This document shows positions 9,201 to 41,110 of a DNA stretch of 64,000 nucleotides, one piece after another. The position numbers and the translations under genes were made by a program. Each line of letters starts with the position of its first letter. Position 1 is the stretch's first letter. Below the pieces are notes generated by a model, which was given only the letters and a program-made list of their open reading frames with translations, was not told where the DNA came from and ran no database searches. The stretch is from a virus (lineage: Duplodnaviria; Heunggongvirae; Uroviricota; Caudoviricetes), in the IMG/VR virus record IMGVR_UViG_3300033069_001366, positions 47,108 through 111,107 of that record. One strand, 5' to 3'.

Positions 9201-12200
9201 TTAAATTTTATTTCAATATTTCCATCACTATTAAAGTGTATATTGGCATATTTTGAATAAGCAAATGTTCTAAGAAAACTAAAGAATTCAAGATATTCAT
9301 CAGAGTTTTCAAATAGTTTATTTCCTTTATATTCATCTTCTAAACGGAGAACTCCTTTATCACTTAAAACTTGAATTGCTCCATATAATCTAGTATCGCT
9401 AGTAATTTTTTCACCATTATCAAATACCATCTCTCTTAGAGATGTTCCTTGAAGTGGGATGTATAATTTAGAAGGTATATCATATATATAAGGTCTACCA
9501 ATCTTAATTCTTTGTGTTAAAGAACCATCATTATTTGGACCCGAATCCCATGAACCTCTTACATAATCTACAGTATATCCATCTATTTTTACATCAAAGT
9601 CCTGTTCTGTAATATCATTATCATCAACCATTTGTTGAACAGTTCTCATGTTCTCCCACTTAGCTCCACCAGAGGCAAAGCTATTATCTTCTAGATTTGA
9701 TGTAAGAAGTCTTCCTGCAAGTATATACCCAACTGTTCCTAAAATAGGAACTTTATTATGTAAGGCTTCATAAAGAAGTGTCTGAGGATCTTTATCAGAT
9801 TTAAATCCTGATTTAATAGAACCTGGCTTTTTTGTAATTTTACTACTTCTAGATATGTTTAAATTAGCTTTTGTAAATAATTCAAACTCAAATCTAAAAC
9901 CATGTATCGTACCCTCTTCTTTTTCTACAATATCACCTTTATCATTAAAATAAAGATAATTACCTTGTTCATCAGCAAGAAAAGCAACTATTTCAGGGAT
10001 AGTAGTAAACTTAGTTTCCAGACTAAATTTCTTATTTTCATCTGTAAGAAGTTCGAATTTAAGTTTTATAGGTTGTGGATTTTCAGCTATTTTTTCTAAA
10101 ATATAATGCTGTTTTCTTGCTAGTTTATCAGATTCAGTAGTAAGACCACCACCTTCTGCTAACTCTTGAGGGTTTACAGTAACAGTTGCTATTTCCCCTT
10201 GCTGTCTTGATAAATCAACAAAGTGACTGATTATATTTTCTTCGCTATCTTTTTGAGGGAACTCAAAGAAATCCTTATCTCCATCAGAAGGAGGTATATT
10301 TATTGAGTCATTATCTCCTACTTCAGGAGTATCCTCTAAAGGTTCTGCTTTTTTAAATTCTTCAATTTTACCATCTTTTGCAATATCCTCTGGAGATTTT
10401 CCTGCAGGAGGGATATTATTTATAAACCTTTGGAACTCGTCCTTTACTATTTTAGGGACATCTTCGTTTTTAATTGGATTTATTTGCTCATTTTCATCTT
10501 CAATCCAGAAAAGGTCTGGTTCATCCTTAAAGACTGCATATGTTTGATTGTTATACTTTATATCATAACTATCTCCTACGTCTTCAATTTTTACTTCTGG
10601 TTTAGATTCAGGAGCTTTTTCTTTAGTTCCATAAATATCTTTATAAGCCTGACTATTCTTTTCTCCCTCAGAAGGTTCAGGTAATAAATCTTCATTAAAT
10701 ATAGTAGAAATAGCCTTTCTTACAACTGCAGGGTTGGCAAGTTTTGGATATTCTTTTTGTAGATACCCTCTTACAAATCCTTTATCCATATTTCCTACAG
10801 CTTGTTCTAATTGGTCAGCAGTATCTTTATCATTTGAATCTAAAGCATTAATAAATGTCTTTAATGTATTTTCATCAGGGTTTATCTCAGGGGTTTCTTC
10901 TTTAGTAGGTTCTTCTTGAGTCTGAGGTTGTTCTTCAGCAGTTTGTAATTTCTCTTCTGCTTTTTTTAAATCTTCTTCAGCTTGTTCTTCTTTCTCTTTA
11001 CTTTTAGCAAATTCTTTTGCAAGAGGAACTAAGAAGTTTGCAATTTGATCATTAAATCTAATGTATTTAGTATTACCTGTAGCTAAAAAATTATTCAGAT
11101 CTAAATTATCCTGATAATTCTTTTGATATTTTAGATAATCAATTAAATCATCTCTTTTAGACCTATTAAAATCTTCAACTCTCCTTGATAAAGGAGCTGT
11201 ATTTTCCCAAGAACCTTGGGTTTTTATAGAAGCTTCTACATAACCTTGAATTTCATCTGCAAGTTCTTCAATAGGATATTGCTTTTTTTCAACTAGTGTT
11301 TTTATATTATCTAATCTACTAAGTGCCTCTTCAATATAATTTTTTCTATCTTCATTAGTTTCTATTTGTAATCTCTTAGTTAAATTATCTATTAAAGGTT
11401 TAGTGTTACCTAAAAAGAAAATATCCTCTAAGAATGAATAATCTGCCTTAGAGTTTAAGTCATAAGGATCAGATGATAAAGATTTATCATTTAATTTAGA
11501 TAAAATCTTCTTAGCTTCTTTAGCTGCATTTAACATGTTTGCTTGAGAAAAAACAGAAGCTTTATGCATTTCTGTTAATCCAATCATAGCTATCTGATGA
11601 AGATTAAATTCTCCATATATTTCCTGTAGCTCATTAAATATAGCAGGATCTAAATTATCTACATCTACCTCACCTTTATCATTTTTAGGAAGAGTTAGAA
11701 GAAAACTATCATACTTATCTTTTGCGTTACTATATGCAGTAGCTGCTACTTCAAAGTCAGATTGAATAAGCTTCTTTTGATTCTCGAATATTTTCTCGAA
11801 TTCTTTGCTGTTTTCTTGTAAATTTGAAGAAAAGTTCTTAATAGAAGACATTAATTGTTCCTGAGACTCAGGAGTTAAATATTCCTCTTTATCAATTTGC
11901 AGGGTATTAGCAAGTGTTTCAAAATCCATACTTGCTAAATTTTTCATCTTCTCAATCTGTAAATCTATTTTACCTGTTTGTAATCCATTATATAGGAATC
12001 TTAAAAGTTGAATATTTTGAGCATTTTTTAAATTAAAAATGTCATTTTTATCAATAAATTTACCAGCAACATATTGAGTTCTTCTATCTTTTATAAAATC
12101 TAAAAACCCATCTGTTTTAAATATATCTGCTATACCTTGAGCATTTAGAAATGCTGCAGTTTTCTTAAGATTTGCTATGTATCTTTCCTTTTGGATTTTA

Positions 12201-16496: not shown

Positions 16497-16925
16497 TTAT
16501 TTATGTGATATTAGATAATACAATGCGTTTTCTATATTTGATTGATTATCTTTAAATGAACCTAAACCTTTATTACACAAAGAACAGAGTAAGCCTCGTA
16601 CTTTTCCTGTTTTATGATCATGATCTACACATAAACTCTTATTTAGTTCTGATTCTGGAGTACCACAAATAGCACATTTTCCTACTTGTTCAAAGTATAT
16701 TTTGTCATATTCTTTCTTTGTAAGATTATACTTACTTATGACAAATTTTTCTCTATAGTACTCTTTAGGATAAATTTTCCTACTTTTAGGGTAGGACTTT
16801 TGCTTTTGACATAAACATTCTTTACAGGAACCTGTAAAATATCCATCTGATTTAGGATAAAATTCAGATATTGTTTTCTGAATTTTACATATTTTACAAA
16901 CTTTTTCCTTTATATTATGTTTCAT
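16497..16925 (-). CDS. HNH, endonuclease-VII type homing endonuclease (142 aa).
   Basis: Motif CAICG...LCVDHDHKTGKVRGLLCSLCNKGLG, which is the canonical DHDH-TG-RGLLC-CN-LG endo VII/HNH_3 signature. An N-terminal Cys pair suggests a zinc finger. Confidence 0.75.
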   Translation of the reverse strand: MKHNIKEKVCKICKIQKTISEFYPKSDGYFTGSCKECLCQKQKSYPKSRKIYPKEYYREKFVISKYNLTKKEYDKIYFEQVGKCAICGTPESELNKSLCVDHDHKTGKVRGLLCSLCNKGLGSFKDNQSNIENALYYLISHK

Positions 16926-16970: not shown

Positions 16971-18641
16971 TTATGTTAATTTAGATTTTAAAAGTGACAG
17001 AATTGCAACTTGTACCTTTGGATCATATGATTTATAATTTCCAATCATCTCATTTAAAAGCTTTGAGAATTGATCATCATCAACATCTCTAAAATCTTTC
17101 TTATTTCTTAAGAATTGACCTGTTTTATAATCAAATCTCCAAGCTGGATTCTTTTGAGTAGCCATCATATATGCTAAAGATTGATTAGTCTCTACATCTC
17201 TCATTCTATTATTCATAAACTGATCCCACATGTAGTTCTTCATGTTATCATAGTTCTGTTGACCAGTTATAGACTCTCTATAGTAATTCTGATCATTCTG
17301 CATATCTGTAAGGGTTTTCTGAGTTTTTAATTGAGTATTAAATTGTCTAGAACTATTTATAATCTGTGAGTTTTGATTATCATATTGGTTTCTTATAGTT
17401 GGAGCTTTATCCAGTAAAGATGCCCATATATCATTTGCCTGTGCATTACCAAGTATAGGATTTAATGCAGATGTAGCTCCAACTTGTTGATTAGCAAGAC
17501 CTTTCATGTCTGCTATAGTTTGCTCTGGATTAAGTAAAGAAGGGTCCATGTAAGTAGTATTAAATCTACTTCTCATAGGCATATACCTTTTTACAGAGGC
17601 TGCTTTTAGTGCATTATAAGCTTGACTTTCCTTTTGATAAGGAGTAAACTCCCACGGAATTTTCATAAATGAATCTGGTTTTTCATCTATTTTACCAACT
17701 CCTATATCTGGAGTAGCATATCCAATTTCCCCAGGAGTTATTTTTATTTCTAACTGTTTATTATATGGATTACCTGAAGTTTTTTCAGGAACACCAGAAA
17801 CTTTTGTATTAGTACTAGTTTGTGGAGGAGTAGTTGCTACGGGAGGAGTTGTTGTCTGTGTAGTTACTGACTGAGTACCTGTAGGAATATATCTTGGCAT
17901 ACCTCTAAATCCAGCTAATGGATTTAATCTATATCCTTCTGGGATCACTTCTTTCTTTTGGTCAAAAAATGTAGATAATCTTCCCCAACCACCTGCCACT
18001 TGAAACTTAGGAAGAATTCTTCCACCGTACTTCATATATTGTTTACTTTCCATAATATCTTCTTTTATATCTTTGTCAAATACAGGTGCAGTATTTGTAG
18101 AAAATGCAGGAGTACCATCTGGAAATCCTTTTTTGGATTCTTGTATGTATCCTATTTGTCCTAGTTTTTCAACATACTTTTCTAACATCATAGATGAACT
18201 TCTTTTAGCTAAATCATCCTTTTTAGGATCTAAAAGGTTCTGAACCAATGCATTATAATGCTTAGTATCAATATTTCTTTTAAGTACCTCTGCAGGAGTA
18301 TTCTTTTTGCCTGTTTTTAGTTCAAACATTTCTTGTTCATCATTAGATATATTCATTGACTTATGATCAGAAAATACAAAAGATCCTCCTTTAAGGTATA
18401 CATCTGTACCACCTTGAGAGTGCTTTTTACCCTTTGCTTTGAATAATGCAGATAAATCAGGATTGAGTATTATCTCTCCTTCCTCTACTTCTACATTAGC
18501 TGCATAAGGATTCTCATCAATAGAATCATTGATTTTTGGATTATCATTATGTAATGATGGTAATTTACTAGGATCGTTCTGATAGTACTTTCCTGTAAAA
18601 TGGTACATATTTTTGTACGATTTGTTATCTCCTACTCCCAT
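16971..18641 (-). CDS. Virion-associated protein (556 aa) with a Thr/Pro-rich linker.
   Basis: ORF containing a TQSVTTQTTTPPVATTPPQTSTNT low-complexity linker. It overlaps the next gene by 10 nt. Confidence 0.55.
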   Translation of the reverse strand: MGVGDNKSYKNMYHFTGKYYQNDPSKLPSLHNDNPKINDSIDENPYAANVEVEEGEIILNPDLSALFKAKGKKHSQGGTDVYLKGGSFVFSDHKSMNISNDEQEMFELKTGKKNTPAEVLKRNIDTKHYNALVQNLLDPKKDDLAKRSSSMMLEKYVEKLGQIGYIQESKKGFPDGTPAFSTNTAPVFDKDIKEDIMESKQYMKYGGRILPKFQVAGGWGRLSTFFDQKKEVIPEGYRLNPLAGFRGMPRYIPTGTQSVTTQTTTPPVATTPPQTSTNTKVSGVPEKTSGNPYNKQLEIKITPGEIGYATPDIGVGKIDEKPDSFMKIPWEFTPYQKESQAYNALKAASVKRYMPMRSRFNTTYMDPSLLNPEQTIADMKGLANQQVGATSALNPILGNAQANDIWASLLDKAPTIRNQYDNQNSQIINSSRQFNTQLKTQKTLTDMQNDQNYYRESITGQQNYDNMKNYMWDQFMNNRMRDVETNQSLAYMMATQKNPAWRFDYKTGQFLRNKKDFRDVDDDQFSKLLNEMIGNYKSYDPKVQVAILSLLKSKLT

Positions 18642-21600
18642 ATATTATATTTGTTAGTGTGTTTTAATCTTAAGTATCTTGTAGCTGGATTTCTTGAATC
18701 TGCCGAAACTTCATAATTATAGTTAAATACATGTGTTGCTTCAGGTATATCTTTAGTATTTAATAACTTATCCCAGTCACCTCTTTGTTTTGCCTCTATT
18801 TCAACAAACATCAATTGAGTGTCTAAACTATAAGGATTTAAACCATTTGAGGATGCAAATTTTAAAAAGTTATTTTTTCTTTCGCCTTTCCATTGAGCAA
18901 CTCCATAAGCCTTATCTTTTAAGTTATTGTCTCCAGTTGTTTCAAAAGATATAACATCATCTCTAAAATTTCCAGATTCTTGTATTAAATTATTAACAAC
19001 TCCTGCAGCCTGATGAGATGCTAATCCTCTAGATTTAAAAAAGTTATAAGCATATTGTGCTTTATTTTCCCCACCTCCAAATTGAGAAGCATTATAACTT
19101 TGAATATAATACTCTCTTTGTCTTTTTGCATCAGTTTTTTCATCTCTACTTTGAGCAACTGTATCTACCTGATTCCAAATAGAACCTACCTGCATATCGT
19201 CTTCTTGTTCTTGTTCTACCTCTTCATCACTAAATAAGAAGTTAAAGAATTCATCATTGTCATCTATTTGTCCACCATCTTGTAATTTTGTATATTGTGT
19301 TATACTTCCACGATAAGGAGCAACAGAATTTAAATTACGCTGATTAAGTATCTTTATGAAATCATCTGCTGCTTCTTTAGTTGGAAACCCTCTATCCACT
19401 CCTTGATTACTTTCATCAAAGTATCCCACCATATAATTCCCTTGAGGAACTGGTGGAAGTTTTTGAGTTCCAACACCTTGTAATCTATCAGGAAATCCAT
19501 ACATATTGTCTGGAGTAGTTATAGGATTTACTTTACCTACTCTTTTTTGTAATCCAGGTTGTTCTTGAAAAATATATGGTTGTACTGGTTTTTTATATAG
19601 TGTTACAAGTCCACTATTCCAATTATCTTTATCAGACATATCACCATATCCTGAACCTATTGGTGCTATTTTTGTGTTTCTTAAAGCAACTCCTTTATCA
19701 TCAGTAATCATATTACCTCTATTATGGGTAAAAGGTGTAATAGCAACTTTATTACGGTATTGTTCTGCTTTATTTGATTCTAAATTTAATTCTTTTTGAG
19801 AATAATTCTTTCCTACAACAAAATTAGTTTTACGACCATATTCCTCAAAAGTACTTTTAGTGTATGGGTCTAACTTAATATTTTCTACTGTAGTTACTTT
19901 GTTATTTGGGTATAGTAATTTAAGATAATTAGCATCATCTTGAGAATATGCCGTGATAGGTTTTTTAGTATCTAAACTATATTTTTTAATACTATTATAC
20001 AAAGCTAAACTATCATTATAAGCTCTAAGTCTTGGGTCGTTTTTATCTGTTACCGTAATAGGTGCTCTACCACCTTGTTGAGCTATTGGATATTCTGTCA
20101 CCTTCTTACCCTTAAATTTATAATCTTTTCCCGGTTCCATGTATTGAATATCTCCTTCATCTGAGATTCCTAAGAGAGGTTGATTTACTCCCTGCATTGT
20201 TATATCTGGAGAATTTATTTCCACCACCTTTCCCCAATTCTCTGGATTCCAATATCCCATATTATCTTTTACTACACCACCTTGTTTTTGTTTAGTAACT
20301 TTTTTAAATGTTTCTAACCAATTTTGAATAACTTCAGGATTAGTTCTAATACGACTTCTTACCAATGGATCGTATATACCTCTTTCCATTGATTTTGTAA
20401 TAGGATTATATGTAAATGACTTTAACCCTTCTATATCTTCTAAAGATTTTTCAACATTAGGTGTTATTGTAATACCCTCTCTTGGTACATTTCCTTTATT
20501 AATTACATCTCCTATCAACTCTCTGTGTTGGTCAAGCGGTTTTTTTAAAAAAGACTCCAAAGATGATTGTTTTGTAAATAAATGTCTACCAACAGGTTTA
20601 TCAAATAAAGTCCTTGCAGTAGTTCCTTTATATGGACTACTTTTTTTCCACCATGTTTTATCTCCTTTTATTTGTCCAAAATCATTATGAATAATCCAAT
20701 CATCTACAGGAGTGACAGTTTGATCAAAAGGATAATAGTTATCATATGGTGTGGATATGCTATTAAATTCAGATTCAGCAGCATCCGAAACATTATATTT
20801 TTTTTGTAAGTTTTTTATATGTTTAGAGGGATATTTATAATCTGGTCTTGGCATAAAATCATATGTAGCATCGTTAAGTCCAAAACCATTTTCAAATTCT
20901 GCCATATAGTACATTCTACCATCTTTCTGTAGAAAAGGAGCACCATAGTGGTTTATTATTTTACCTTCTGGAAAATTAGGTGTCCCTCTATATGATATAT
21001 TAGGAGCTATTAATTCTTCCTCAAGAATACGATTGGCATAAAGATTATCAGCTAATGTTTTATTCAGTTTACTATTATTCAACATTTTAGATAGAGTAAT
21101 AGTTTTGGGACCAGGTATATTAGAAAGAAGTCCTGATTCCATAGACTGAGCTATCTTACCAGGAACTTTAGAAATACCACCAATCATTCCAACAGGACCA
21201 AATCCTAAATTAGAAATAAACTCACGATTGGAAACCTCATTAGTCCAAAACTTTTTACTAAGGGGGTTAATCTTTCCAGAACCTGCCATTCTTCCCATAA
21301 GTAGTGGACTTGCTACAGCTCCAATGTAAGGAAGATTGGAATCAGATTGTTTAGCCTCATAAGGAGCTGTTCCTAATGCTCCACTCATATTACCTATTAT
21401 ACCAAAAGGATTTAACCAATCATCATACCAGGCTTCATCATTTTCATTAAATCTACCTTTACCTTCAACAGATTTACCAGAAACATAAGCTTTCTCTCTC
21501 CAGTCCATTTGGTCTAGAGATTTAGTTTCTCCTGTAGGGAATGTGAAGGTTTTAGATTTGCCCTCATTAAAAGCTTTAGCAGCTTTTCTCTCAGCTATTC

Positions 21601-24496
21601 TTTGTTTTTTCTCTTGTTCTTCTCTTCTTTTAGCTTTCCCCATAGCTTCTGTAGAAGCTTTTACATCTTCTTTCTTTTGTCCTGTAGTGGCTGTACTAAC
21701 CATTCTTTTTGTTACAGGATCAAAGAACATTATAGCAGTGCTTTCAGAAGCTGCTCTAGGCATTACATACTTAATGCCCACTTGAGCTTTTGGAACTTTA
21801 GATCCTTTTTTACTAATACTCTTTGGTTTCCAGTCTAGTCCATGTTGGTAGTAGGACATACCACCATTTTCTTGTTTTGGAAAAATAGATTTACCACCAC
21901 TATTAATATAATCTTCATATAGTCTAGCCTCTCCTTCAAGAGTAGAAGGATTTTCATATATGAGATCTTCAGCACCTACAAAAGACTTTTGACCTTTCTC
22001 ATTAGGTTTTGATCCACTTATTAATTTACTTTTTGGAATAAACTGCAATCCTGGATTAGACTTAATCATTTCATTCACTTGATTATCTACCTCTTGCTGT
22101 CTTCTTTCTTTTGGATTCCTTCCAGATAATGTTTGGAAATGATGATATTTCTCATGCTCAACCCACCAAGGATTATTTATGTTTTCTATCTGACTATTTG
22201 GATCATAATTAATTGTGCCTTTGCCATCATATCCATAGTGTCCTTCAGAATTTAATCCTGCGACATATTTAGGTTCTTGCCAATTTTCAACTTTTTCAGG
22301 TAAATATTTTTTATGAACTTTTCCATTCTGTGCACTAGGCATAGTCTTCTTAGCATAAGGTCCTTCAGAAGGAATACCTTGTGTACGTGCGTATGTAAAT
22401 CCTACAGAACCAGGAAGAGAACCACCCATTTGAAACTGTCCACCCCAAGCACTATTGTATTTAAAAGGAATGTCTGTATATCCTCCCATAGTTCCTTCTA
22501 TTCCATTTTGGGCTTTTATTACACCACCTTTCTTATGTTGCTTCACTCCATAATGAGGAAGTATAACATATTCTCCTTTTACAAAAGGTCTTTGTATATT
22601 TTTTGGAAGTATGCCTCTTTTAATTTGTTCATCTATTTCACTATTTAAATATTTAGCAATATCTTTTCCTTCATACCCATACCCTGATAGAAAACCAAGT
22701 GTATTCATAGGTCTATATCCAAGGAACTGAGGATCTCCTTTAGTGTATTTAAATACTTGTTTTAACTGAGGAAGATATGAACTGTGTGATGTATTTGTAC
22801 TTCCTGTAAATACATCTCCTGATTTAATACCTTCTGGTGCAAAACTAACTTTTTTAGAAACTTCTTTTTGCATCCTGTGCAAACGATGGTAATTTGTGGC
22901 AAATAAATTTCCTGAACCAGATAGGGAAAGAGAAGGAACTTTTTCAAGAACCTCTCCACTGTAGAATGGATAGTTTTGTGCTACATTACCTACAAAGTCT
23001 TCTAATTTATTACTAAGTTTATTTACTCCAAGATTAATATCTTGTTTTAATTGCATGGATAGAGGTATTCTAGAACTCTCTTGTCCTGGAATAATTGTTC
23101 TACTTACTCTTCCTGAACTAATTAAATCATTATAAGCTCTTTGAAATCTTTCATCTGTAATACCTGTTACATCAATATCTAAATCTCTTCCTCTAGATGG
23201 TCTTTGTAAATTTATTCTACCTCTTATATCAGCAAATCTAGCAGCTTTCTGTTGACCAAATCCTTCATTTAATAAATCTTGAGCTTCTTGTCTAGATTTT
23301 CTAAATACTTGTTGGAAGTGTTCTTCTGGAAGATTACTCTCCAAACCATATTTCATTTGTTCAGCCATTGAAACATTTGTTGCCCTAAGTCTTCCTATTT
23401 CCTGAACTTGCCTAAGAGCTTTAACATCCTCAGCAGCCATTCTTGGAAGATCCTTCTTTAGAGGAATACCAGCAACTCTTCCCATCGCTTCTTTTAAACT
23501 TTCAGCTCTTGGAATATCTATAAGTGTTTTTGTTATATTTTTTAATTGTGGACGAAATTCTGCAGCAAATGGTAATATACTAGCTGTATTTAATCCAGCT
23601 TGAAGATATTCTCCTCTTCTGATATTTCCTGGAATAGAAGCAGCAATATCTCCATATGCAAAAGGATTAACTATATTGACAGCATGTTCTAAAGGGTTAA
23701 CTTCCCCTCTTTCAAAGTTTTCTGGAATATCTTGTCCATGCAGTTTATATTTAAGAGCTGTCATGGGATGTGTAGCAATAGCCCATGCTTTAGATTTAGC
23801 AGATCTTTTTGGCTCAGCTTGTTTAATTTGTCCTTGTTTTTCAAGACTTTCCTGAATAGCTCTTTGATTAGCAACTTTACGTTCAAGTTCGGGATTTCTT
23901 CTTAGAACATCTACTCCCATACTTGTACTTTCAGATGAAGGTCTTGGAATTGGTTGCATCCAAGAAAACCCTCCTTTTCCTCCACTTTGCATTTTTGGAA
24001 CATATTTCCAAAACAGTCCTGTAGAATCTATGTCATACTTACTTTTAAAACCCTGTGCTTCAGGACTATTATACCATTCTAATTCTGACTTAATACTAGG
24101 ATGATTCGGAGCTTTTAAAAATTCTAAAGTTTGATTATCTACACTTGGTAAATGACCTTGATTATCAGGAACATAACCCAATTCCCAAGCTCTTTGTAAT
24201 CTATAGTCATTACTTTCTTTCAGGTTATATTTTTTCTTCCAATCTTCATAACTAATACCCCCTTTTTGCATTAAAGGAATTTCCATTACAGAATCTGCAG
24301 AAGGGAACAAGTATGGATTTTTATCAAATGGTATTCCCATTTTTGGTTTTCCAAACTTTTTACCTTTCTTCATTGGTTGCAAAAGTAAAGGAATATCAGT
24401 ATTTTGCATAGTGATATTATTACCCTGTATATTTAAATAAGGGTTATTTGCAAATGGTGAACCTTGACTATATCCAAGTATTGATTTTAAATCCAT
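18632..24496 (-). CDS. Very large virion or ejection protein (1954 aa) with a C-terminal lysozyme-like (lytic transglycosylase-like) domain.
   Basis: The C-terminal about 170 aa contain LIQESGNF...AYGVAQW, with a catalytic Glu-Ser followed by a GxxQW motif. The protein also contains the repeated peptide PIAQQGGRAPITVTDKNDPRLRAYNDSLALYN. Confidence 0.6.
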   Translation of the reverse strand: MDLKSILGYSQGSPFANNPYLNIQGNNITMQNTDIPLLLQPMKKGKKFGKPKMGIPFDKNPYLFPSADSVMEIPLMQKGGISYEDWKKKYNLKESNDYRLQRAWELGYVPDNQGHLPSVDNQTLEFLKAPNHPSIKSELEWYNSPEAQGFKSKYDIDSTGLFWKYVPKMQSGGKGGFSWMQPIPRPSSESTSMGVDVLRRNPELERKVANQRAIQESLEKQGQIKQAEPKRSAKSKAWAIATHPMTALKYKLHGQDIPENFERGEVNPLEHAVNIVNPFAYGDIAASIPGNIRRGEYLQAGLNTASILPFAAEFRPQLKNITKTLIDIPRAESLKEAMGRVAGIPLKKDLPRMAAEDVKALRQVQEIGRLRATNVSMAEQMKYGLESNLPEEHFQQVFRKSRQEAQDLLNEGFGQQKAARFADIRGRINLQRPSRGRDLDIDVTGITDERFQRAYNDLISSGRVSRTIIPGQESSRIPLSMQLKQDINLGVNKLSNKLEDFVGNVAQNYPFYSGEVLEKVPSLSLSGSGNLFATNYHRLHRMQKEVSKKVSFAPEGIKSGDVFTGSTNTSHSSYLPQLKQVFKYTKGDPQFLGYRPMNTLGFLSGYGYEGKDIAKYLNSEIDEQIKRGILPKNIQRPFVKGEYVILPHYGVKQHKKGGVIKAQNGIEGTMGGYTDIPFKYNSAWGGQFQMGGSLPGSVGFTYARTQGIPSEGPYAKKTMPSAQNGKVHKKYLPEKVENWQEPKYVAGLNSEGHYGYDGKGTINYDPNSQIENINNPWWVEHEKYHHFQTLSGRNPKERRQQEVDNQVNEMIKSNPGLQFIPKSKLISGSKPNEKGQKSFVGAEDLIYENPSTLEGEARLYEDYINSGGKSIFPKQENGGMSYYQHGLDWKPKSISKKGSKVPKAQVGIKYVMPRAASESTAIMFFDPVTKRMVSTATTGQKKEDVKASTEAMGKAKRREEQEKKQRIAERKAAKAFNEGKSKTFTFPTGETKSLDQMDWREKAYVSGKSVEGKGRFNENDEAWYDDWLNPFGIIGNMSGALGTAPYEAKQSDSNLPYIGAVASPLLMGRMAGSGKINPLSKKFWTNEVSNREFISNLGFGPVGMIGGISKVPGKIAQSMESGLLSNIPGPKTITLSKMLNNSKLNKTLADNLYANRILEEELIAPNISYRGTPNFPEGKIINHYGAPFLQKDGRMYYMAEFENGFGLNDATYDFMPRPDYKYPSKHIKNLQKKYNVSDAAESEFNSISTPYDNYYPFDQTVTPVDDWIIHNDFGQIKGDKTWWKKSSPYKGTTARTLFDKPVGRHLFTKQSSLESFLKKPLDQHRELIGDVINKGNVPREGITITPNVEKSLEDIEGLKSFTYNPITKSMERGIYDPLVRSRIRTNPEVIQNWLETFKKVTKQKQGGVVKDNMGYWNPENWGKVVEINSPDITMQGVNQPLLGISDEGDIQYMEPGKDYKFKGKKVTEYPIAQQGGRAPITVTDKNDPRLRAYNDSLALYNSIKKYSLDTKKPITAYSQDDANYLKLLYPNNKVTTVENIKLDPYTKSTFEEYGRKTNFVVGKNYSQKELNLESNKAEQYRNKVAITPFTHNRGNMITDDKGVALRNTKIAPIGSGYGDMSDKDNWNSGLVTLYKKPVQPYIFQEQPGLQKRVGKVNPITTPDNMYGFPDRLQGVGTQKLPPVPQGNYMVGYFDESNQGVDRGFPTKEAADDFIKILNQRNLNSVAPYRGSITQYTKLQDGGQIDDNDEFFNFLFSDEEVEQEQEDDMQVGSIWNQVDTVAQSRDEKTDAKRQREYYIQSYNASQFGGGENKAQYAYNFFKSRGLASHQAAGVVNNLIQESGNFRDDVISFETTGDNNLKDKAYGVAQWKGERKNNFLKFASSNGLNPYSLDTQLMFVEIEAKQRGDWDKLLNTKDIPEATHVFNYNYEVSADSRNPATRYLRLKHTNKYNIWE
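20007..20090 (-). repeat. Copy 1 of a roughly 85-bp near-identical direct repeat, inside the 1954-aa gene.
   Basis: aaactatcattataagctctaagtcttgggtcgtttttatctgttaccgtaataggtgctctaccacc is identical to 25702-25770. It encodes GGRAPITVTDKNDPRLRAYNDSL. Confidence 0.8.
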
Positions 24497-24497
24497 A

Positions 24498-27134
24498 TTA
24501 TTTTTTTTTATGAAATCCGTGATATTTTTTTAAAGTCTTAGCAAGTGCTTTTCTATGTGGTGTACAAGTTGATTTTGTCATTGGCGTACAATATCCTTTA
24601 TGTTCTGGATTAATTCCCATAAATCCACCCTTTTTCATTTGTAAACCTTTACCTCTTAGAAATTTAGAAAGTTCTTCTGGATTATTCTTTAAATCTAAAT
24701 CAGCTTGATTTACTTTTCCAGCAGCACCATCAGTTGGCCAAAATTGACCATCTTTCCAATAACCAATTAAACTATTAGCAGGGCCAAAAACTGAAGCACC
24801 ACTTTTTGTTGTATCTGGACTCATTTCTCCACCACTTATAGTACCTCTTACTTGTCCTTTAGGTCTGGTTACTATTGGATAATCTTTTGGTTCTTCTTTA
24901 TATACTACTGGTTGTACTGGTTTTTTATAAAAATCTTTTTGATATAAAGGTCCAGCTTTTGAAACACTTAATTGTTTATCTACAGGTTTTATTTTTTTAT
25001 TTGTATTATTAGGATTTTGTATTATTCTCTCTTGATTTTTAAAATATTCTTTATTTAAATCTTCTTCTTTTAAAATCCAATCGCTATATGCTGAAGAATT
25101 AGTTATTTTAGGTTTATAAAAGCTATTATATAAACTCAAACTATCATTATAAGCTTTTAAACGAGGGTCATTAGGATTGGTAACAACAATAGGGACTCTC
25201 TCTTGAGTTTTAGGTTGTGGTTTCTGATATACTACTGGTTGTACTGGTTTTATCAAATCTCTATCATATATAGGAACATCAGTAATATCAATTTTTCTGG
25301 TTTTATCTTTATTATTAGAAGCTATATATGATTCCCATTTTTGAGGTAGTATATTGTCACTGAATAGAGAAACTGGGGCTTTAGGGTCAAAATAGTAATC
25401 AATAGCTCCATCTAATATATCTCCCGATGAATAAATATTATTATTAACTTTTCTATATCTATTATTAAAATTCTTTTCTTGTTTTGGAGAGAACACTATA
25501 TCTGAACCAAAATTTGCATCAATAGATAATTTTTCCAATAAGTATTCATATTGTTTTGTAGAAAGGTTTTTTTTAAATTTCTCTATTCCTTGTATTAAAT
25601 TTGGAATATTGTCATTAGAAGTGCCACTTTTCTCTCTCTTTATATAGTTTGGATTATTTTTATAAAAATTATCTTTTAAAATCTGATTCTTGTACAAAAT
25701 CAAACTATCATTATAAGCTCTAAGTCTTGGGTCGTTTTTATCTGTTACCGTAATAGGTGCTCTACCACCTTTTTGAGCAATTGGAATATTAGATTGCTCA
25801 CCACCCATTTGTTTACTTACTTTACCACCAAATCTTGCATATAAGGAGTAATAATTCGGTTGAAAATCTTCAATGTTTGCTGGTTCCATTTGCCCAAGAG
25901 TACTATATTGATTATACATATATTGATTCTGCCTATTCATTTCTTTATTATTTGCCAACCATGAAAGTCCAGTTGTAGCTCCTCTTAACATAAAGTAAGG
26001 ATTAAAAGGTTCTTTCTTTTGAGTTTGAGGACTTCTTGTTATAGGTTGACCAACTGCAGTTCTTCCTTTCTGAATAGGATTTGCAGGATTCATTCTTTCA
26101 GAAAATTGGTCAAATCCTGGAATCATACTCCACCTATCTTCTGCAATTAAATCATTTTGTATTTCTTCTGGTATTTGTACTCCTGTATCAGAAAATTTTA
26201 CTTGAGGATAAGGTTGATTTATTTCAATAGGATTATCCCATAAGTAATTACCTTGTCTTCTAACTCCTTGTAAAGGTGTTCCATTTAATCCAATTTGAGC
26301 TTTTATTAGTCCTCCTTTCTTTTGATAAGAAGGTGATGAAAAATACTTTCCTAGTATTTTACCAATAGTTTCACTATTCTCAGCCTCTGCAACCTTCATT
26401 GCTCTAGATGGAATCCATGAATTAGGAATTGGAACTTGCATATTATCAATAAGTTGATTAACATGGTAGTCTTCATTATATAGTACTCTTCTAGCATCTC
26501 TAGATAAAGGAGTATCTTCTTCTAAAAATTTTTTATATTGTTCACTGGAAAAATGAGGTTCATAGTCAGGTGTAAACATTTCTTCATCTGTAAGTTCATA
26601 CACTTGTTTACCTGTTTTTGAATCAAGACTATGATAACCTAAATCATCAACAGCAGTTGAGAATCTAGGTCTAAACATTTTAGTAGTAAGTTTATCTAAT
26701 GCTTTAGTTCCTAAATTTGATAGTTTTGAATAAACTTTTTCTATAGGTCTAAAAACTACATTAGGTGTAATACCTGCATTAAACATATCAACTGCACTAC
26801 TACCCATTGATTCCAGCATACTTTGTCCTTTATAGGCTTCTTCTGGATTTAATAGATTTGCTACAGATGCACCTGGACCTAACATTATATCACGAAGAAT
26901 ACCTAATCCTTTTGGCATTTCAGCATTCATTGCTAGTTTACTACCATCATAAATCCTCTTTCTTATAGATTTAGTCTCTGGTTCTTTAACTTTTTTAGCA
27001 TTATTTAACACAGTGCTAACTGGTGTTTTATAACCAGTTGGATTTGTTAAAACATGATATGGCATCTCTTCCTGAGATAATGGAGGTACTTTATTTTTAC
27101 CTAATTGATATTTAGGTCTATATTTATTTTTCAT
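24498..27134 (-). CDS. Large virion protein (878 aa) sharing a repeated peptide module with the 1954-aa neighbour.
   Basis: Contains PIAQKGGRAPITVTDKNDPRLRAYNDSLILY and a diverged second copy VPIVVTNPNDPRLKAYNDSLSLYN. The C-terminus is Cys/His/Lys-rich. Confidence 0.55.
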   Translation of the reverse strand: MKNKYRPKYQLGKNKVPPLSQEEMPYHVLTNPTGYKTPVSTVLNNAKKVKEPETKSIRKRIYDGSKLAMNAEMPKGLGILRDIMLGPGASVANLLNPEEAYKGQSMLESMGSSAVDMFNAGITPNVVFRPIEKVYSKLSNLGTKALDKLTTKMFRPRFSTAVDDLGYHSLDSKTGKQVYELTDEEMFTPDYEPHFSSEQYKKFLEEDTPLSRDARRVLYNEDYHVNQLIDNMQVPIPNSWIPSRAMKVAEAENSETIGKILGKYFSSPSYQKKGGLIKAQIGLNGTPLQGVRRQGNYLWDNPIEINQPYPQVKFSDTGVQIPEEIQNDLIAEDRWSMIPGFDQFSERMNPANPIQKGRTAVGQPITRSPQTQKKEPFNPYFMLRGATTGLSWLANNKEMNRQNQYMYNQYSTLGQMEPANIEDFQPNYYSLYARFGGKVSKQMGGEQSNIPIAQKGGRAPITVTDKNDPRLRAYNDSLILYKNQILKDNFYKNNPNYIKREKSGTSNDNIPNLIQGIEKFKKNLSTKQYEYLLEKLSIDANFGSDIVFSPKQEKNFNNRYRKVNNNIYSSGDILDGAIDYYFDPKAPVSLFSDNILPQKWESYIASNNKDKTRKIDITDVPIYDRDLIKPVQPVVYQKPQPKTQERVPIVVTNPNDPRLKAYNDSLSLYNSFYKPKITNSSAYSDWILKEEDLNKEYFKNQERIIQNPNNTNKKIKPVDKQLSVSKAGPLYQKDFYKKPVQPVVYKEEPKDYPIVTRPKGQVRGTISGGEMSPDTTKSGASVFGPANSLIGYWKDGQFWPTDGAAGKVNQADLDLKNNPEELSKFLRGKGLQMKKGGFMGINPEHKGYCTPMTKSTCTPHRKALAKTLKKYHGFHKKK
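25702..25785 (-). repeat. Copy 2 of the same repeat, inside the 878-aa gene.
   Basis: About 69 nt identical to copy 1, then 2 mismatches over the next 15 nt. A diverged third copy lies at 25138-25200, with the first 18 nt identical. Confidence 0.8.
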
Positions 27135-30100: not shown

Positions 30101-31735
30101 GTTGACTGTATAGTTTGAGTAGAGTATTTCTTCATTGGTTTGTTTGTCAACATAAGCTCTCATGTTTGTTATAAGTCCTCTAGATACAACTGTTCCATTT
30201 CCTCCTTTTCTATCAGACCTTGTGATTTTGTAACCTATTATATCAGGGTCACTAAATTTTGGTATATTTTTAAACCTTACACCTAGAATATTAATATAAG
30301 TTTTTCCATCAACTATAGAATATCTAGGAACTTTCTCCTCATCTGGAAATTTGTGGTATCTAATTGGTTTATTAGCATTTTCTCCATAAACTTCCTCATT
30401 ATCAGGATAGAGGTCAGTACTCTCAAAATACCCCATCTCTCCTCTACCTATAACTCTAATACCACAAGAAAATTCATTATTTTCAGACCTCATTTTTCCA
30501 GCAGTATTTTCTATCATCCATCTTTGGATTTTCTCTGGAATATCACAATCTTTTACGTTTTTATCTAATTCATAAACATCTGCAGAGGAGACAGCGTCTC
30601 TATCTTTTGCATTTGCTTTTCTTCCTGCTATGTGATATTTATCTGTTAACTCACCTGTTTTATAAACACCTTGTATATAAAAGTCGTAGTTCTCATCTCT
30701 ATAGTATCCAATATTATCACCATCATTTTCATAATAATCAATAGGTGCTTGAGTAACTACATATTCTGCTTCTATTTCAAAAGCCTTAAGTTGATAATTT
30801 TCTTCATCCCTTCTTACCAAGTCTCCTAATATAAGAGTATTGGAGTTAGAAGAAATAATACCCCCTTTAACCCATGTATTTTTCTTAATAACAAGATCTG
30901 ATAAATTAATTGTCTCAAATGTTGTATTATTTATATCTGTTACTGTTATAGATTTTACTTTTGTAGAATAGTATCCTACTATCTTTGCTACTTTTGTAGC
31001 TCCTTTAGTAACTGGGTCAATATAGTTCGCTACTATACATAATGCAAATTCATCAAATTCTGTATCAATATCTGATATAGATACATCTAATGAACATGTA
31101 TTATTGTCAGAATAAAGAAGTTTTCTATTAGAAATAGAATACCAATCAGAATATATTTTTCCATCAATTGTATATGCTATAGCAGCGGAATATGCGCCAT
31201 TTGGTAAATTTCCAATAAAACCTTGTTTGGTTGATATACAAGGATGTTGTATATTCTTAAAAAGAAGAATTTCATCGCAATCTTTGATTTTTGGTAATGT
31301 TAATAAATCTATTCTTCTAAAAGGATTATATTTATCAGTAAAATATACAATAGTACTTTTATTAAAATCCTTTCTAGCTTTACCTGTAATTTGGTAATCG
31401 GTATTAAAATTTAAACAACTTTTATTAAGAAGTTTTGTATATGTATCTGTAGAAGGATCTCCTATTCCTATTTCTGAATTAATGTTATCTGTAGAAAATA
31501 CAAGATGTTTACCATCTGGTAAATCTATTATTCCTATTATTTTGTAAGGTGCTGAATATGATTTTATAGTAGATGGTTCGTTACCAAGTGTTCCAAGACT
31601 ACCTTCTTTACTGGCTCTTATAATATTCCTTGCATGTGAATAAGATTCACCATTTACATAAGAAGAATCCAGGTCTGTAACTAGACCTGGTTTATTTAAT
31701 GCATTAGTATCTACTTTATTTAAATTATTATCCAT
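27131..31735 (-). CDS. Large virion structural protein (1534 aa), function unknown; possibly a tail, stopper or ejection component.
   Basis: Long uninterrupted ORF in the same block as the neighbouring large proteins. It overlaps the downstream gene start by 4 nt. Confidence 0.55.
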   Translation of the reverse strand: MDNNLNKVDTNALNKPGLVTDLDSSYVNGESYSHARNIIRASKEGSLGTLGNEPSTIKSYSAPYKIIGIIDLPDGKHLVFSTDNINSEIGIGDPSTDTYTKLLNKSCLNFNTDYQITGKARKDFNKSTIVYFTDKYNPFRRIDLLTLPKIKDCDEILLFKNIQHPCISTKQGFIGNLPNGAYSAAIAYTIDGKIYSDWYSISNRKLLYSDNNTCSLDVSISDIDTEFDEFALCIVANYIDPVTKGATKVAKIVGYYSTKVKSITVTDINNTTFETINLSDLVIKKNTWVKGGIISSNSNTLILGDLVRRDEENYQLKAFEIEAEYVVTQAPIDYYENDGDNIGYYRDENYDFYIQGVYKTGELTDKYHIAGRKANAKDRDAVSSADVYELDKNVKDCDIPEKIQRWMIENTAGKMRSENNEFSCGIRVIGRGEMGYFESTDLYPDNEEVYGENANKPIRYHKFPDEEKVPRYSIVDGKTYINILGVRFKNIPKFSDPDIIGYKITRSDRKGGNGTVVSRGLITNMRAYVDKQTNEEILYSNYTVNDLSPDVYISAKQTVYKSGRETNFVPLSEYKKDTFTFYSPHTLFEPRYSIGNELKVECEEVAEITGQFEIVKNHPKLKLLNQFSFWAALAIGSLEAFYQAKGLDKQVTESVDQASFGNVPTTGTVGDINFGFNFQTSNLKTQGTNISNQYTLLSLSFKGIADIIQELSKVKDLPKKGRLLKQIKLVLQLIGSVGISVTLLALTAIKYANEVLDIINGFTANTDYVLQYNASAEFRKSTAAKTGNKRRAIIQSKYLPSQVVSIDNETINNFKREKGVYLKLNKEIIDPSTKDNSRNTISGFGICNDINQKVKSQGSAYYVTNKVNNRNQYGRLGSSSPVSMHSCVLNDFKESPVLYGGDCIIARMYFLKKMQFFNQNLANANFPDGIEYDYRLYRNIGYPRYWLDSTKYDFSEIFTLKTVNFSTFNRTTANKHNLDCKKSKDGKTLSRIDDAYMYLSNNCAIDFICEADYNISFREESEHPFYYQKNKTLSKIFASDKLDFDEEFKINRVYSDLYTTEIFAPQQRSDFDPKNPIPVNEPNSVIYSLPAYNLQKIDNWQYFLPLNFFNFSETDFGKLTGIHPIDQDRLMFLFTKASPFVSMGRSLLELSGQTVTIGDGGLFAQDPREIMPTTNNFGASSSRLAFASNQFGRFYISEKQGKILSFGENLDDISMKGISFWCKNYMPIFLYKYFPSYTKDENTISGVGYQIVFDNFYETLYISKRDFVPVSNEIICENNEFFFRGVKVSLRDSKYFKDVSWTLSYSPMDKAFVSWHDWHPDLVVQGENHFYSVKDKTLWKHNESYESFCNFYDVEYPFEIEPISATGQNVEIIRSLEYILEVYKYKNFGRDRFHVHHENFSNLIVHNSEQISPLLNLSYGNPDPEQNLKYPKKSTNLSYDIVFFKEENKYRVNQFWDITKDRGEFTNNEYHLFPTDESGYKNVINPVAINIDKPEEQRKKFRHYFTKFRLIKSISGSHKFIFKIINIKKLISLR

Positions 31736-32258
31736 TTACAATATTTGACATCTCATTAAATAATCTTAATGATTTTATTATACCTATATCTGTAAGTGTT
31801 ACTTTCTCAACATTTATTCCCCATTTCTTTACTTCAACTCTTACTTTTTTTGTAATAGTGTTATCTGTTTCATTGTCTGTAACATCTTCCCATGCTCTTG
31901 ATGTAACCTGTTCTTTTATTATTGCTTGGGTAGTATCCGATATTGCGTCAACAGGGTCATATACTTCCAATATAACATCTTTTATAGAAGAGATATTATA
32001 TTTTACAACTGCCTTTGCAACTATTTGTTTACCATCTTTTGTTGTTAAAGATTGTGTAGGGATACTTAATGTTGTAGTAACAACAGTTCTCGTTTCTACT
32101 TTATCTAAAAATGGAATCTTCCAACAAATTCCTGGCTCAACAATCTTTAAAAACTTTCCACCTCTAAAATGTACACCTCTATCGTATTCTTTCACAATAA
32201 CAAGTGGAAGAACATCTTCTATAAAATTTAGTAAAAAGTCTACAAGTTTATCAAACAT
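31728..32258 (-). CDS. Hypothetical protein (176 aa).
   Basis: ORF tightly packed with its neighbours, overlapping by 8 nt. Confidence 0.45.
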   Translation of the reverse strand: MFDKLVDFLLNFIEDVLPLVIVKEYDRGVHFRGGKFLKIVEPGICWKIPFLDKVETRTVVTTTLSIPTQSLTTKDGKQIVAKAVVKYNISSIKDVILEVYDPVDAISDTTQAIIKEQVTSRAWEDVTDNETDNTITKKVRVEVKKWGINVEKVTLTDIGIIKSLRLFNEMSNIVNG

Positions 32259-33100
32259 TATTGAAAATATCTAAACCATTGATGATACCAACCTAATTGT
32301 TTTTTCTTTTCTCTTTGGAGTGTTTCATTATAAGACTTTTCAGTCGTAAAATTATATGCATCCAACCAAGCAAGTTGTCTTTGTCTATTTGCTAATTTCC
32401 ATAACTCACCAAGATTAGGAGAGTCACTATTAAATAAAGCAGTACTAACTATACTTTCTTTCAAAGTCCATTCGTAATATGGTGTAATTAATGGATGAAA
32501 AGGAAATGTAATATTACCATTCTCATCCTTCATCATACCTATATATACAAGATATAAAGTACCAGACCTAAAAGGAGTATGTATATATTCACCATCAATC
32601 TCTACTTTATACCTACCTTTCTTTGTTTTATTTGGACAGTCTATATGACAGTAACTAGTACTTGGATCAACCTCAAGTTGAACCCAATTACCATATTGAT
32701 ATACAACATGTTTAGATTCTCTTTTAATTTGGACCCTATAGTTATCTACACATCCAAGAGATTCTCTATCTAAAGATGCTTCATATATAATATCTTGGTC
32801 TACATTATTATCAAAAGGATTTGTAAGTGTTACATTTTGTGTATTTGTAGCTTCTAACGCACATACATAAAACATCTTCTCAAAATCAAGAGGTAATTTA
32901 GCTTTATACTCATTTACAGGAATTGCTATTTCTCTTATCTCTCTAATATTTAAACCAAGTTTATCATTACAATACATTACTGATTTGATGAGGTTTCCAT
33001 CATCAATTAATCCTTCAAGATCAAATTTCTTAAAGTCATTTTTAACAATGGCTATAAGCTCCTGAATAGGTTTATGATCTATTGTTTTATTATTTACCAT
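32258..33100 (-). CDS. Hypothetical protein (280 aa).
   Basis: ORF with start/stop overlap with its neighbours. Confidence 0.5.
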   Translation of the reverse strand: MVNNKTIDHKPIQELIAIVKNDFKKFDLEGLIDDGNLIKSVMYCNDKLGLNIREIREIAIPVNEYKAKLPLDFEKMFYVCALEATNTQNVTLTNPFDNNVDQDIIYEASLDRESLGCVDNYRVQIKRESKHVVYQYGNWVQLEVDPSTSYCHIDCPNKTKKGRYKVEIDGEYIHTPFRSGTLYLVYIGMMKDENGNITFPFHPLITPYYEWTLKESIVSTALFNSDSPNLGELWKLANRQRQLAWLDAYNFTTEKSYNETLQREKKKQLGWYHQWFRYFQ

Positions 33101-33789
33101 TATAGCTTACGGTTTGCATTTTTATCAATTTGTTGGTCTTCAGGTATCTGTTTTAATGGAACAAGTAACTGAAGTGCTTTTGCATACATTTCTGCTTCAA
33201 CCCAATCTGGTATTAAAAACTCAGTTTCAAGAAATTGTATACACTCATTCTCATTAGTATCACAATCCTCACATTTAATATCCATTAATCTAACGTCATC
33301 TACTGCAAATACTCTTATATTTACCTTGTGAGGATTAAATTCTGGAAACCATAAATAACCATTTTCATAAAAAACATACTTTGTAGGTTGTAATTTATGA
33401 TAAGGATCTTGTCTTTTGGACTGCCATGTTCTATAGTTTGTTATAAAAAAGTTTGTTGTGTTGTCTACAGAGGTAACTGAGAATATTGCTGGACCATTTG
33501 CAGTTTGCCACATTTCAGGCAATTGATGCTTAGTCCTATATATTTTACAATTAACTGTTACTGGACAACACTCTTCAATAGTTGAAGATGGAACTATATC
33601 CCAACAAGATAAAGTTTGTAAAAACTTTGGATTTTTATGAACATTTCCATTATTTATTTCTCTTTTTATCAACCATTTTGCTTGGTCGAAAAGTACATTA
33701 TATAAATACTGATTGGTGTAATTAGTATCTATATTTCGTTCCTTTAACATTTGTCTAAAGGTATCAATATGTTTTCTTTTTGTACTCAT
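33100..33789 (-). CDS. Hypothetical protein (229 aa), Cys-rich.
   Basis: ORF with several Cys pairs (CCPVTVNC, CEDCDTNENEC). Confidence 0.5.
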   Translation of the reverse strand: MSTKRKHIDTFRQMLKERNIDTNYTNQYLYNVLFDQAKWLIKREINNGNVHKNPKFLQTLSCWDIVPSSTIEECCPVTVNCKIYRTKHQLPEMWQTANGPAIFSVTSVDNTTNFFITNYRTWQSKRQDPYHKLQPTKYVFYENGYLWFPEFNPHKVNIRVFAVDDVRLMDIKCEDCDTNENECIQFLETEFLIPDWVEAEMYAKALQLLVPLKQIPEDQQIDKNANRKL

Positions 33790-36489: not shown

Positions 36490-36521
36490 CAAATATAGTA
36501 TAATAATTTACAAAAACCAAA
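36490..36521 (-). promoter_or_regulatory. Candidate Bacteroidetes-type promoter upstream of tRNA cluster 1 (-33 TTTG and -7 TAnnTTTG).
   Basis: Minus sense reads TTTG, then 20 nt, then TATATTTG, directly downstream of the tailspike stop codon. Confidence 0.25.
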
Positions 36522-40938: not shown

Positions 40939-41110
40939 TGTGTATTTTATTTTCTTAACTCTCACTTACAGAAAGACAACACAAACCCTATTGAGTTTCT
41001 ATCCTCAATATTACCTTTCACCATCGCTATGATATTTAAAGATTGCATTTGTGAATGTCTATAACTTTTAATTAGTGCAAATATACAATGTATTTTTTAA
41101 AAATCCAAAT

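Follow-up and report, generated by a model that had tools for sequence, protein, structure and literature searches.

Two adjacent genes of a crAss-like phage share a block of near-identical DNA that encodes one end of a widespread, previously unannotated cassette-type domain found in crAss-like cargo-region proteins, and the nucleotide identity of the two copies is a real recombination footprint, neither an assembly artifact nor a regulatory element. The genes lie in a stretch of 64,000 nucleotides (nt) from a Caudoviricetes virus (positions 47,108 to 111,107 of IMG/VR record IMGVR_UViG_3300033069_001366), which we refer to as the window. We name them gpA, the open reading frame (ORF) of 1954 amino acids (aa) at 18632-24496, and gpB, the ORF of 878 aa at 24498-27134. 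The reading we favor, to which we assign a probability of about 75%, is that gpA and gpB are mosaics in a crAss-like cargo region that contain a module with conserved ends, that crossover at these ends swaps the variable cassettes held between them, and that gpB has undergone a recent gene conversion.

An Exact Repeat within Two Unrelated Proteins

The original prediction had described an 85-bp near-duplication, present in three copies in otherwise unrelated proteins, and both parts of this description are correct. The two closest copies are identical over a maximal match of 70 nt (20007-20076 = 25702-25771), and the following 15 nt contain 2 mismatches. In register, the repeat extends over 96 nt (19995-20090 vs 25690-25785) with 94% identity. 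The third copy, at 25126-25221, has 64% nucleotide identity to the other two. All three copies are on the minus strand, which is the coding strand, and correspond to aa 1470-1501 of gpA and to aa 450-482 and 638-670 of gpB; both ORFs are intact and in frame. A codon-by-codon comparison of the gpA and gpB copies gives 0 synonymous differences over the approximately 23 codons of the core. The sequence on either side of the copies is unrelated at the nucleotide as well as the protein level, and when gpA is compared with gpB by BLASTP, the sole stretch they share besides the motif is a short KKGGxIKAQxG linker. The 64-kb window contains no other long near-identical dispersed repeat.

The Repeat as One End of a Domain

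The repeated DNA encodes the first block of a domain of approximately 100-190 aa. The domain consists of an N-terminal block (N-block) with the pattern PIxVxDxNDPRLRAYNDSLxLYN, a hypervariable middle that holds a small KIxP block, and a C-terminal block (C-block) with the motif YKKPVQPVVY, which sits 80-170 residues after each copy of the N-terminal motif. A profile hidden Markov model (HMM) run against the six-frame translation of the window finds exactly three domains, one in gpA and two in tandem in gpB. In alignments of 18 and 71 instances (A2 and A3), the N-block is near-invariant at P5, I6, D13, P14, R15, Y19, D21, S22, and L23, the KIxP block is nearly invariant, and the C-block is conserved as K-P-x-Q-P. 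The segment between the blocks varies in both length and sequence and is unalignable.

We modeled both gpB modules with AlphaFold2. The predicted local distance difference test (pLDDT) score is 77.7 for module 2 and 65.9 for module 1, and the elements follow in the same order in both models: a strand, a long helix, the variable region, and three strands. The pLDDT is about 90 or higher in the N-block, the KIxP region, and the C-block and low in the variable cassette. The models suggest that the conserved blocks form the core of the domain, a small strand-helix-three-strand fold.

The family is broad. A profile search of 1.84 billion cluster representatives returns 1096 proteins at E<=1e-3, 333 of them at E<=1e-10, and each of the 161 matching proteins that we retrieved carries between 1 and 4 domains. 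No Pfam, PHROGs v4, or NCBIfam model covers the module. The module profile finds nothing at E<=1 among PDB sequences, in which the presence of ΦcrAss001 virion chains was left unchecked, and a Foldseek search of BFVD with the module model gives no match at E<=1e-3. Against 50,697 phage records, neither tblastn with gpB (E<=1e-5) nor megablast with the region returns a match, and tblastn with gpA (E<=1e-3) returns lysozyme-domain matches only, among the 25 records listed of 323. Exact scans of IMG/VR for the cassette interior and for the gpA-type N-block likewise give no match, and the N-block pattern has 0 matches in representative bacterial and archaeal genomes. The C-block pattern has 1 match there, in a Flavobacterium metagenome-assembled genome, which lies out of frame among ordinary bacterial genes; we regard it as a chance match, and it therefore assigns no host. 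The shared motif of the original prediction is thus real, conserved, and present in homologous proteins. It does not stand alone as a peptide but opens a whole domain, as its N-terminal block, and the domain always ends in YKKPVQPVVY.

A Recombination Footprint and a Three-Way Mosaic

To place the identity of the two copies in context, we compared 69 homologous N-blocks from 64 sources (63 loci and the window), which gives 2346 pairs. The gpA/gpB pair is the most similar of them all, at 93% over 75 nt; between genomes, the median N-block identity is 65%, the 99.9th percentile 87.5%, and the highest value 90.7%. Among the homologous N-blocks, approximately 38% of the codons for identical residues differ synonymously. 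Given this level of synonymous difference and the outlying position of the pair, constraint on the peptide does not explain the DNA identity of gpA and gpB.

A second tract of identity adjoins the first. Over 497 nt, gpB is 100% identical to positions 10703-11199 of locus L001, and equally to locus L077. L001 belongs to another crAss-like phage, the backbone of which is otherwise unalignable to the window at the nucleotide level, and blastn of L001 (19 kb) against the 64-kb window gives no match beyond the cassette. The tract begins inside the RAYNDSL codons and stops exactly after KPVQPVVYQ. On the 5' side of RAYNDSL, the L001 DNA differs at 14 nucleotides and encodes a nearly identical peptide, KRVPITTTNPNDPRLRAYNDSL, and gpB there is the same as gpA. 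The gpA tract and the L001 tract overlap in 20 nt that are shared by all three sequences, which marks these 20 nt as the crossover zone. This 20-mer occurs in 5 IMG/VR contigs, and in at least 4 of these we confirmed that the motif is encoded. L077, in which the same cassette is found, matches L001 at 99.64% over 12 kb; it derives from another sample and was built with another assembler. It was the sole match in a metagenome scan with a degenerate cassette pattern and represents the same phage species as L001. Because L077 is an independent assembly, the arrangement in the partner phage is not an assembly chimera. The exact sequences of gpA and gpB are each found on two JGI contigs. Four observations therefore bear out the suspicion that recent recombination or gene conversion lies behind the repeat: the core lacks synonymous differences, the pair is an outlier among the 2346 compared, the boundaries are sharp, and a three-way mosaic is present.

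With L001/L077 as the outgroup, conversion of gpB by gpA needs one event and the reverse needs two, from which we infer that gpA was probably the donor. We had also considered the 'PIAQxGG' prefix as proof of this direction and have downgraded it; the L001-type module is also preceded by a similar tail, PLAQNG. Systematic concerted evolution within genomes was likewise tried and rejected, as the 7 intragenomic N-block pairs, the window pair aside, are not clearly homogenized.

Recurrent Junctions and Cassette Exchange

Junctions of the same kind recur in related phages. The loci L079, L080, and L081 represent three phages with 98-99.5% identity across the muzzle gene and the downstream gene, and their gpB homologues are 937, 726, and 563 aa long, respectively. 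Collinearity breaks at the end of the first N-block in one comparison (L081:1387 / L080:6622) and 17 nt past the second N-block in another (L079:7898 / L080:7229), and the C-blocks of the three remain as islands of 94-100% identity between unrelated cassettes. In an all-against-all comparison of 76 loci and the window region, short matches (30-70 nt, >=90%) between otherwise unrelated contigs fall nearly all at N- and C-blocks. Clustering of the cassettes from 185 modules yields 126 clusters. Different proteins share a cassette type in 135 pairs, and in 80 of these neither 80-aa flank shows any detectable similarity; the proteins P0025 and P0136, with cassettes 100% identical over 94 aa, are one such pair with unrelated flanks. 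The closest relative found, L007 (approximately 80% nucleotide identity), has no module in its gpB homologue (600 aa) or its gpA homologue (1675 aa), which indicates that the module is accessory.

These observations are best explained by the following scheme. The two genes are mosaics of small modules within the virion-gene block of a deep-branching crAss-like phage. The N- and C-blocks would be conserved because they build the domain core, with the DNA homology as a side effect. The conserved ends, as DNA islands of 20-70 nt, would then be the sole homology between otherwise unrelated genes and phages, so that homologous recombination would repeatedly cross over there and swap the variable cassette. 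Such exchange would occur between co-infecting phages and, occasionally, between paralogous copies within one genome. In the window, gpB module 1 and the L001/L077 cassette would have a very recent common source, with transfer in either direction, after which approximately 70-75 nt of the gpB N-block would have been overwritten by gene conversion from gpA or a gpA-like donor, with the crossover within the 20-nt stretch that encodes RAYNDSL. Its hypervariability and its association with cell-wall enzymes make a host-interaction surface on an injected protein the most likely role of the variable cassette.

The Virion Block and the Probable Cargo Genes

The large ORFs of the window are all on the minus strand and follow the order terminase, portal, major head protein, CrAss_Ring_2, CrAss_Ring_1, a 1534-aa muzzle-like protein, gpB, and gpA, after which come a 556-aa ORF, an EndoVII gene, an 898-aa ORF, and a 4528-aa ORF (Table 1 gives the features under study). 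Both ring proteins followed by a large muzzle protein form the virion block of a crAss-like phage. The muzzle protein is 26% identical to a 1506-aa protein of L001 that comes after a CrAss_Ring_2 gene, and the portal shares 23-25% identity with those of known crAss-like phages, which places the window in a deep-branching crAss-like phage. In ΦcrAss001, the cargo genes gp45 and gp46 are numbered directly after the muzzle gene gp44 (PMC10172136). A muzzle-like gene lies within 4 kb in 33 of the 69 IMG/VR loci with a module. Relatives that bear the module carry VanY, YkuD, and DNase II domains, and one of them, P0056, matches crAss_CARG1 (PF25725) with 46.7 bits against a cutoff of 27. From their position and domain content, gpA and gpB are probable cargo or ejection proteins encoded downstream of a crAss-like muzzle gene, which describes them better than the "giant virion genes" first proposed.

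Table 1. Features of the virion block, the modules, and the recombination tracts in the window
Feature	Position	Strand	Remarks
gpA, 1954-aa mosaic, probable cargo/ejection protein	18632..24496	minus	one module; C-terminal Phage_lysozyme2
phage tail lysozyme domain of gpA (aa 1812-1936)	18689..19063	minus	Pfam PF18013, E 4.5e-23
C-block, gpA module	19557..19597	minus	LYKKPVQPYIFQEQP
complete module, gpA (aa 1475-1645)	19562..20074	minus	profile HMM i-E 1.3e-29; N-block, variable cassette, KIAP block, C-block
N-block, gpA module	19995..20090	minus	encodes YPIAQQGGRAPITVTDKNDPRLRAYNDSLALYN; holds exact core 20007-20076
upstream 'ITMxGV...GISDxGDxQ...VTEYPIAQ' module of gpA (aa 1407-1473)	20078..20278	minus	P-[IV]-[AM]-Q-x-G-G tail runs into N-block
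gpB, 878-aa mosaic, probable cargo protein	24498..27134	minus	directly downstream of muzzle gene; two tandem modules
C-block, gpB module 2	24889..24929	minus	FYKKPVQPVVYKEEP
complete module 2, gpB (aa 644-747)	24894..25205	minus	profile HMM; AlphaFold model pLDDT 77.7
N-block, gpB module 2	25126..25221	minus	encodes ERVPIVVTNPNDPRLKAYNDSLSLYN; 64% identical to other two
C-block, gpB module 1	25216..25256	minus	LIKPVQPVVYQKPQP; abuts module 2 N-block
complete module 1, gpB (aa 456-638)	25221..25769	minus	profile HMM; AlphaFold model
497-nt cassette, gpB	25225..25721	minus	100% identical to L001 10703-11199, equally to L077
N-block, gpB module 1	25690..25785	minus	encodes IPIAQKGGRAPITVTDKNDPRLRAYNDSLILYK; exact core 25702-25771; probable converted patch
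crossover zone, 20 nt	25702..25721	minus	AGAGCTTATAATGATAGTTT (coding strand, encodes RAYNDSL); identical in gpA, gpB, L001 (three-way alignment)
muzzle-like protein, 1534 aa	27131..31735	minus	PHROG 37948, E 3.6e-38
tail ring protein 1	32258-33100	minus	Pfam PF24228 (CrAss_Ring_1), E 5.6e-7, above cutoff
tail ring protein 2	33100-33789	minus	Pfam PF25702 (CrAss_Ring_2), E 1.4e-16

Linkers and Neighboring Modules

A short pattern, [hydrophobic]-[Q/K]-x-G-G, precedes nearly every module boundary in gpA and gpB. The sites include aa 76, 169, 654, 688, 875, 1403, 1472, and 1738 of gpA and aa 271, 441, 453, and 833 of gpB. In 167 related proteins the pattern occurs 440 times, and shuffled sequences give 43.8 +/- 6.8. 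It may be a linker between domains or else a site for double-glycine processing. We also note a second recurrent small module, 'ITMxGV..P.LGISDxGDxQ.M.PG.DY.F.G..VTEYP', which in many relatives is often found directly upstream of the domain studied here. Further recurrent modules in relatives have an KKGGLTPNKAREILHD...FFGAKSKGHTNFR tail or a GINPxHKGxCTP...HGFHKK tail.

Alternative Explanations

An unlikely alternative is that the N-block serves as a docking or anchoring peptide, in which the amphipathic helix DPRLRAYNDSLxLYN would bind the portal, a ring protein, the muzzle, or a cell-envelope target and a shared partner would keep the copies identical. No part of the module is more conserved than the N-block, in which D13, P14, R15, Y19, D21, and S22 are invariant or nearly so, and the N-block is predicted to be a helix with a pLDDT above 90. 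On this view, it would resemble parts of the ΦcrAss001 cargo protein gp45, in which short helical segments bind the ring proteins and the portal and helix 214-245 lines the tail barrel (PMC10172136). Selection on a peptide, however, leaves the synonymous identity unexplained, when homologues show approximately 38% synonymous codon differences. The N-block is also modeled confidently together with the KIxP block and the C-block, and a role in the predicted core would explain its conservation without a partner. Moreover, the approximately 80%-identical relative L007 has neither copy of the motif, so the motif is not needed to package these proteins, and the module profile finds nothing in the PDB comparison, with the ΦcrAss001 virion chains unchecked as stated above.

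We hold as improbable a more far-reaching proposal, in which the module and its linkers would make up a dedicated diversification system. The N- and C-blocks would act as recombination sites that move effector cassettes among distant co-infecting crAss-like phages, possibly with the help of the free-standing endonucleases of this gene block, and the giant proteins would perhaps be polyproteins cut at the tenfold-enriched [hydrophobic]-[Q/K]-x-G-G sites so as to release modules in the host.

It is very unlikely that the identity reflects a DNA or RNA element embedded in the coding sequence, such as a nuclease or recombinase target, an internal promoter, or an RNA structure; in one version, EndoVII or GIY-YIG enzymes might target the N-block and drive exchange. 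The islands of 30-70 nt at >=90% identity that mark N- and C-blocks between otherwise unalignable phages are in keeping with such an element, as are the EndoVII-family endonucleases near the cargo genes in the window and in L001. Yet there is no Rfam match in the 18-28 kb region, and N-blocks of different genomes have a median identity of only 65%, with the usual synonymous variation, which argues that no fixed DNA site is conserved. The endonuclease genes, moreover, lie 3-9 kb from the modules, with no link to them in any locus examined.

Least credible is an assembly artifact, in which the 70-nt repeat or reads from co-occurring phages would have yielded a chimeric gpB: the contig is of metagenome origin, but the gpA and gpB ORFs are intact and in frame, the flanks match homologues of their own genes (the sequence upstream in gpB is 80% identical to L007, and the upstream ITM module and cassette of gpA resemble those of protein P0024), an assembler would have had to switch twice in frame, each time within 20-30 shared nt, to produce a chimera, gpA and gpB recur in exact form on the 2 JGI contigs, two independent assemblies from different assemblers contain the partner cassette, and like mosaics occur in L079, L080, and L081.

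Three further candidates were rejected. A diversity-generating retroelement does not fit copies of which the close pair are identical in the core and differ only at the edges and the third shows all substitution types; no reverse transcriptase was found among the ORFs scanned, which are part of those in the window. A capsid-targeting leader of the T4 type does not fit a motif that is internal, at aa 1470, 450, and 638, and not N-terminal. An intein was rejected on anatomy.

The preferred reading, cassette exchange at conserved module ends with a recent conversion in gpB, has points against it as well. The cargo role of gpA and gpB rests on gene position, and neither they nor the 556-aa and 898-aa ORFs (gp556 and gp898) match crAss_CARG1, even at E<=5. 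The fold has no structural relative, so function is not readable from it, and the cassette regions are modeled at low confidence. The direction of conversion is argued from parsimony only, and the prefix argument for it is weakened by the PLAQNG that precedes the L001-type module. The 5' end of the converted patch lies in approximately 6-14 nt of similarity (GCTCAA), and with so little similarity the junction may not be a simple homologous crossover. As the intragenomic pairs (7, the window pair included) are, apart from that pair, not clearly homogenized, conversion between paralogues would be occasional and not systematic. Finally, assembly support is indirect; it comes from the two JGI contigs with the exact gpA and gpB sequences and from the independent assembly of the partner phage.

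Other Features of the Window

Free-standing genes for an EndoVII-family endonuclease (16497-16925, minus strand) and a GIY-YIG endonuclease (35198-35830, minus strand) lie among the virion and cargo genes, and L001 has an EndoVII homologue that is 44% identical to that of the window. Endonucleases of these families could promote local gene conversion. The 556-aa ORF (16971-18641, minus strand) contains a 'HSQGG...GGSFVFSD' stretch at aa 50-170 and has no Pfam or PDB match. We considered it as a CARG1 homologue, as it aligns at the expected place of the CARG1 region of P0056, and rejected this, the alignment not being significant (E 0.92). A gene for an SPFH/Band 7 protein (31728-32258, minus strand; Pfam E 2.5e-23) lies between the ring-1 and muzzle genes and is unusual in a virion block. 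The 4528-aa ORF (218-13804, minus strand) has no Pfam match, and its N-terminal part shows 26% identity to the truncated gene that comes last in L001; by its position, it may encode a giant virion RNA-polymerase-like cargo protein. In L007, a ferritin-family protein (PF00210) is encoded at 2683-3207 between the gpB and gpA homologues, where the window has nothing.

Four intergenic sites on the minus strand (36490-36521, 38774-38804, 41078-41109, and 42878-42909) share the motif TTTGG...GTATATTTG, and three of the four belong to repeat family D3. The Bacteroidota promoter consensus is TTTG-N17-21-TAnnTTTG. The window contains 12 matches to this consensus, against 3.8 +/- 1.9 expected, and 0 of 100 shuffles reach 12. 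The intergenic motif fits the consensus, which suggests a Bacteroidota host for the phage. A periodic coding repeat, mostly of 12 nt per unit, occupies 36824-37040 inside the ORF at 36528-38327, and similar short runs occur at 44006-44057 and 54093-54135.

Implications

CrAss-like phages are very abundant viruses, and their cargo proteins belong to the parts of them that are least understood; the module places a conserved scaffold with a hypervariable insert in this region. A 497-nt cassette with zero substitutions, shared by phages with muzzle proteins of 26% identity, points to gene flow that is still under way between deep crAss-like lineages. One possible explanation of the exchange is that diversity is selected for in proteins that these phages are thought to deliver into the host. 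The conserved blocks can be used as primer or profile anchors in metagenome surveys of cassette diversity, and the N- and C-blocks offer natural junctions for the engineering of chimeric cargo proteins.

Comparison with Known Systems

The internal proteins of T4 combine a conserved capsid-targeting sequence with a variable body, and their leader is N-terminal and is removed by the prohead protease. The module resembles them in joining a short conserved peptide to a hypervariable payload, here in proteins that are probably packaged in the virion and injected. In contrast to the T4 leader, its conserved block lies within the protein, is matched by a C-terminal block, and belongs by prediction to the folded domain.

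In T4-type phages, mobile regulatory cassettes are described as mediating modular shuffling between close relatives through insertions, deletions, and replacements (Arbiol et al. 2010, PMC2839356). As far as that description goes, the likeness is mosaic exchange by way of short conserved sequences, and the difference is that the blocks found here are coding, lie inside a protein domain, and are exchanged in frame.

In gene position, gpA and gpB are like the ΦcrAss001 cargo proteins gp45 (C1) and gp46 (C2), which follow the muzzle in a crAss-type virion block (Bayfield et al. 2023, PMC10172136). Like these, they are large proteins with no recognizable overall fold, and the module-bearing relative P0056 contains crAss_CARG1. 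Unlike the ΦcrAss001 cargo, gpA and gpB themselves have no crAss_CARG1 match, a tail-lysozyme domain is present in gpA, and VanY and YkuD occur in relatives.

In the T-even adhesin gp38, conserved glycine-rich motifs (GRMs) are described as building the core, and hypervariable segments are exchanged by crossovers in these motifs (Trojet et al. 2011, PMC3157838; Tetart et al. 1998, cited therein). The module shares with gp38 short, highly conserved motifs that bracket hypervariable segments, the proposal that these motifs are the structural core, their standing as the only homology, so that recombination between them swaps the variable parts, and a limited set of variable types that recur in different combinations. 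In the module, the N-block, KIxP block, and C-block are near-invariant around an unalignable middle that falls into 126 cassette clusters, and identity breaks inside the conserved motifs, both between the window and L001 and among L079, L080, and L081. There is no sequence or fold relationship between gp38 and the module. The unit here is a domain of 100-190 aa, present 1-4 times per protein, and in place of an adhesin at the tip of a tail fiber it is found in probable injected cargo proteins with cell-wall enzymes. Unlike that of gp38, the exchange seen here takes place between phages whose conserved virion proteins are approximately 26% identical.

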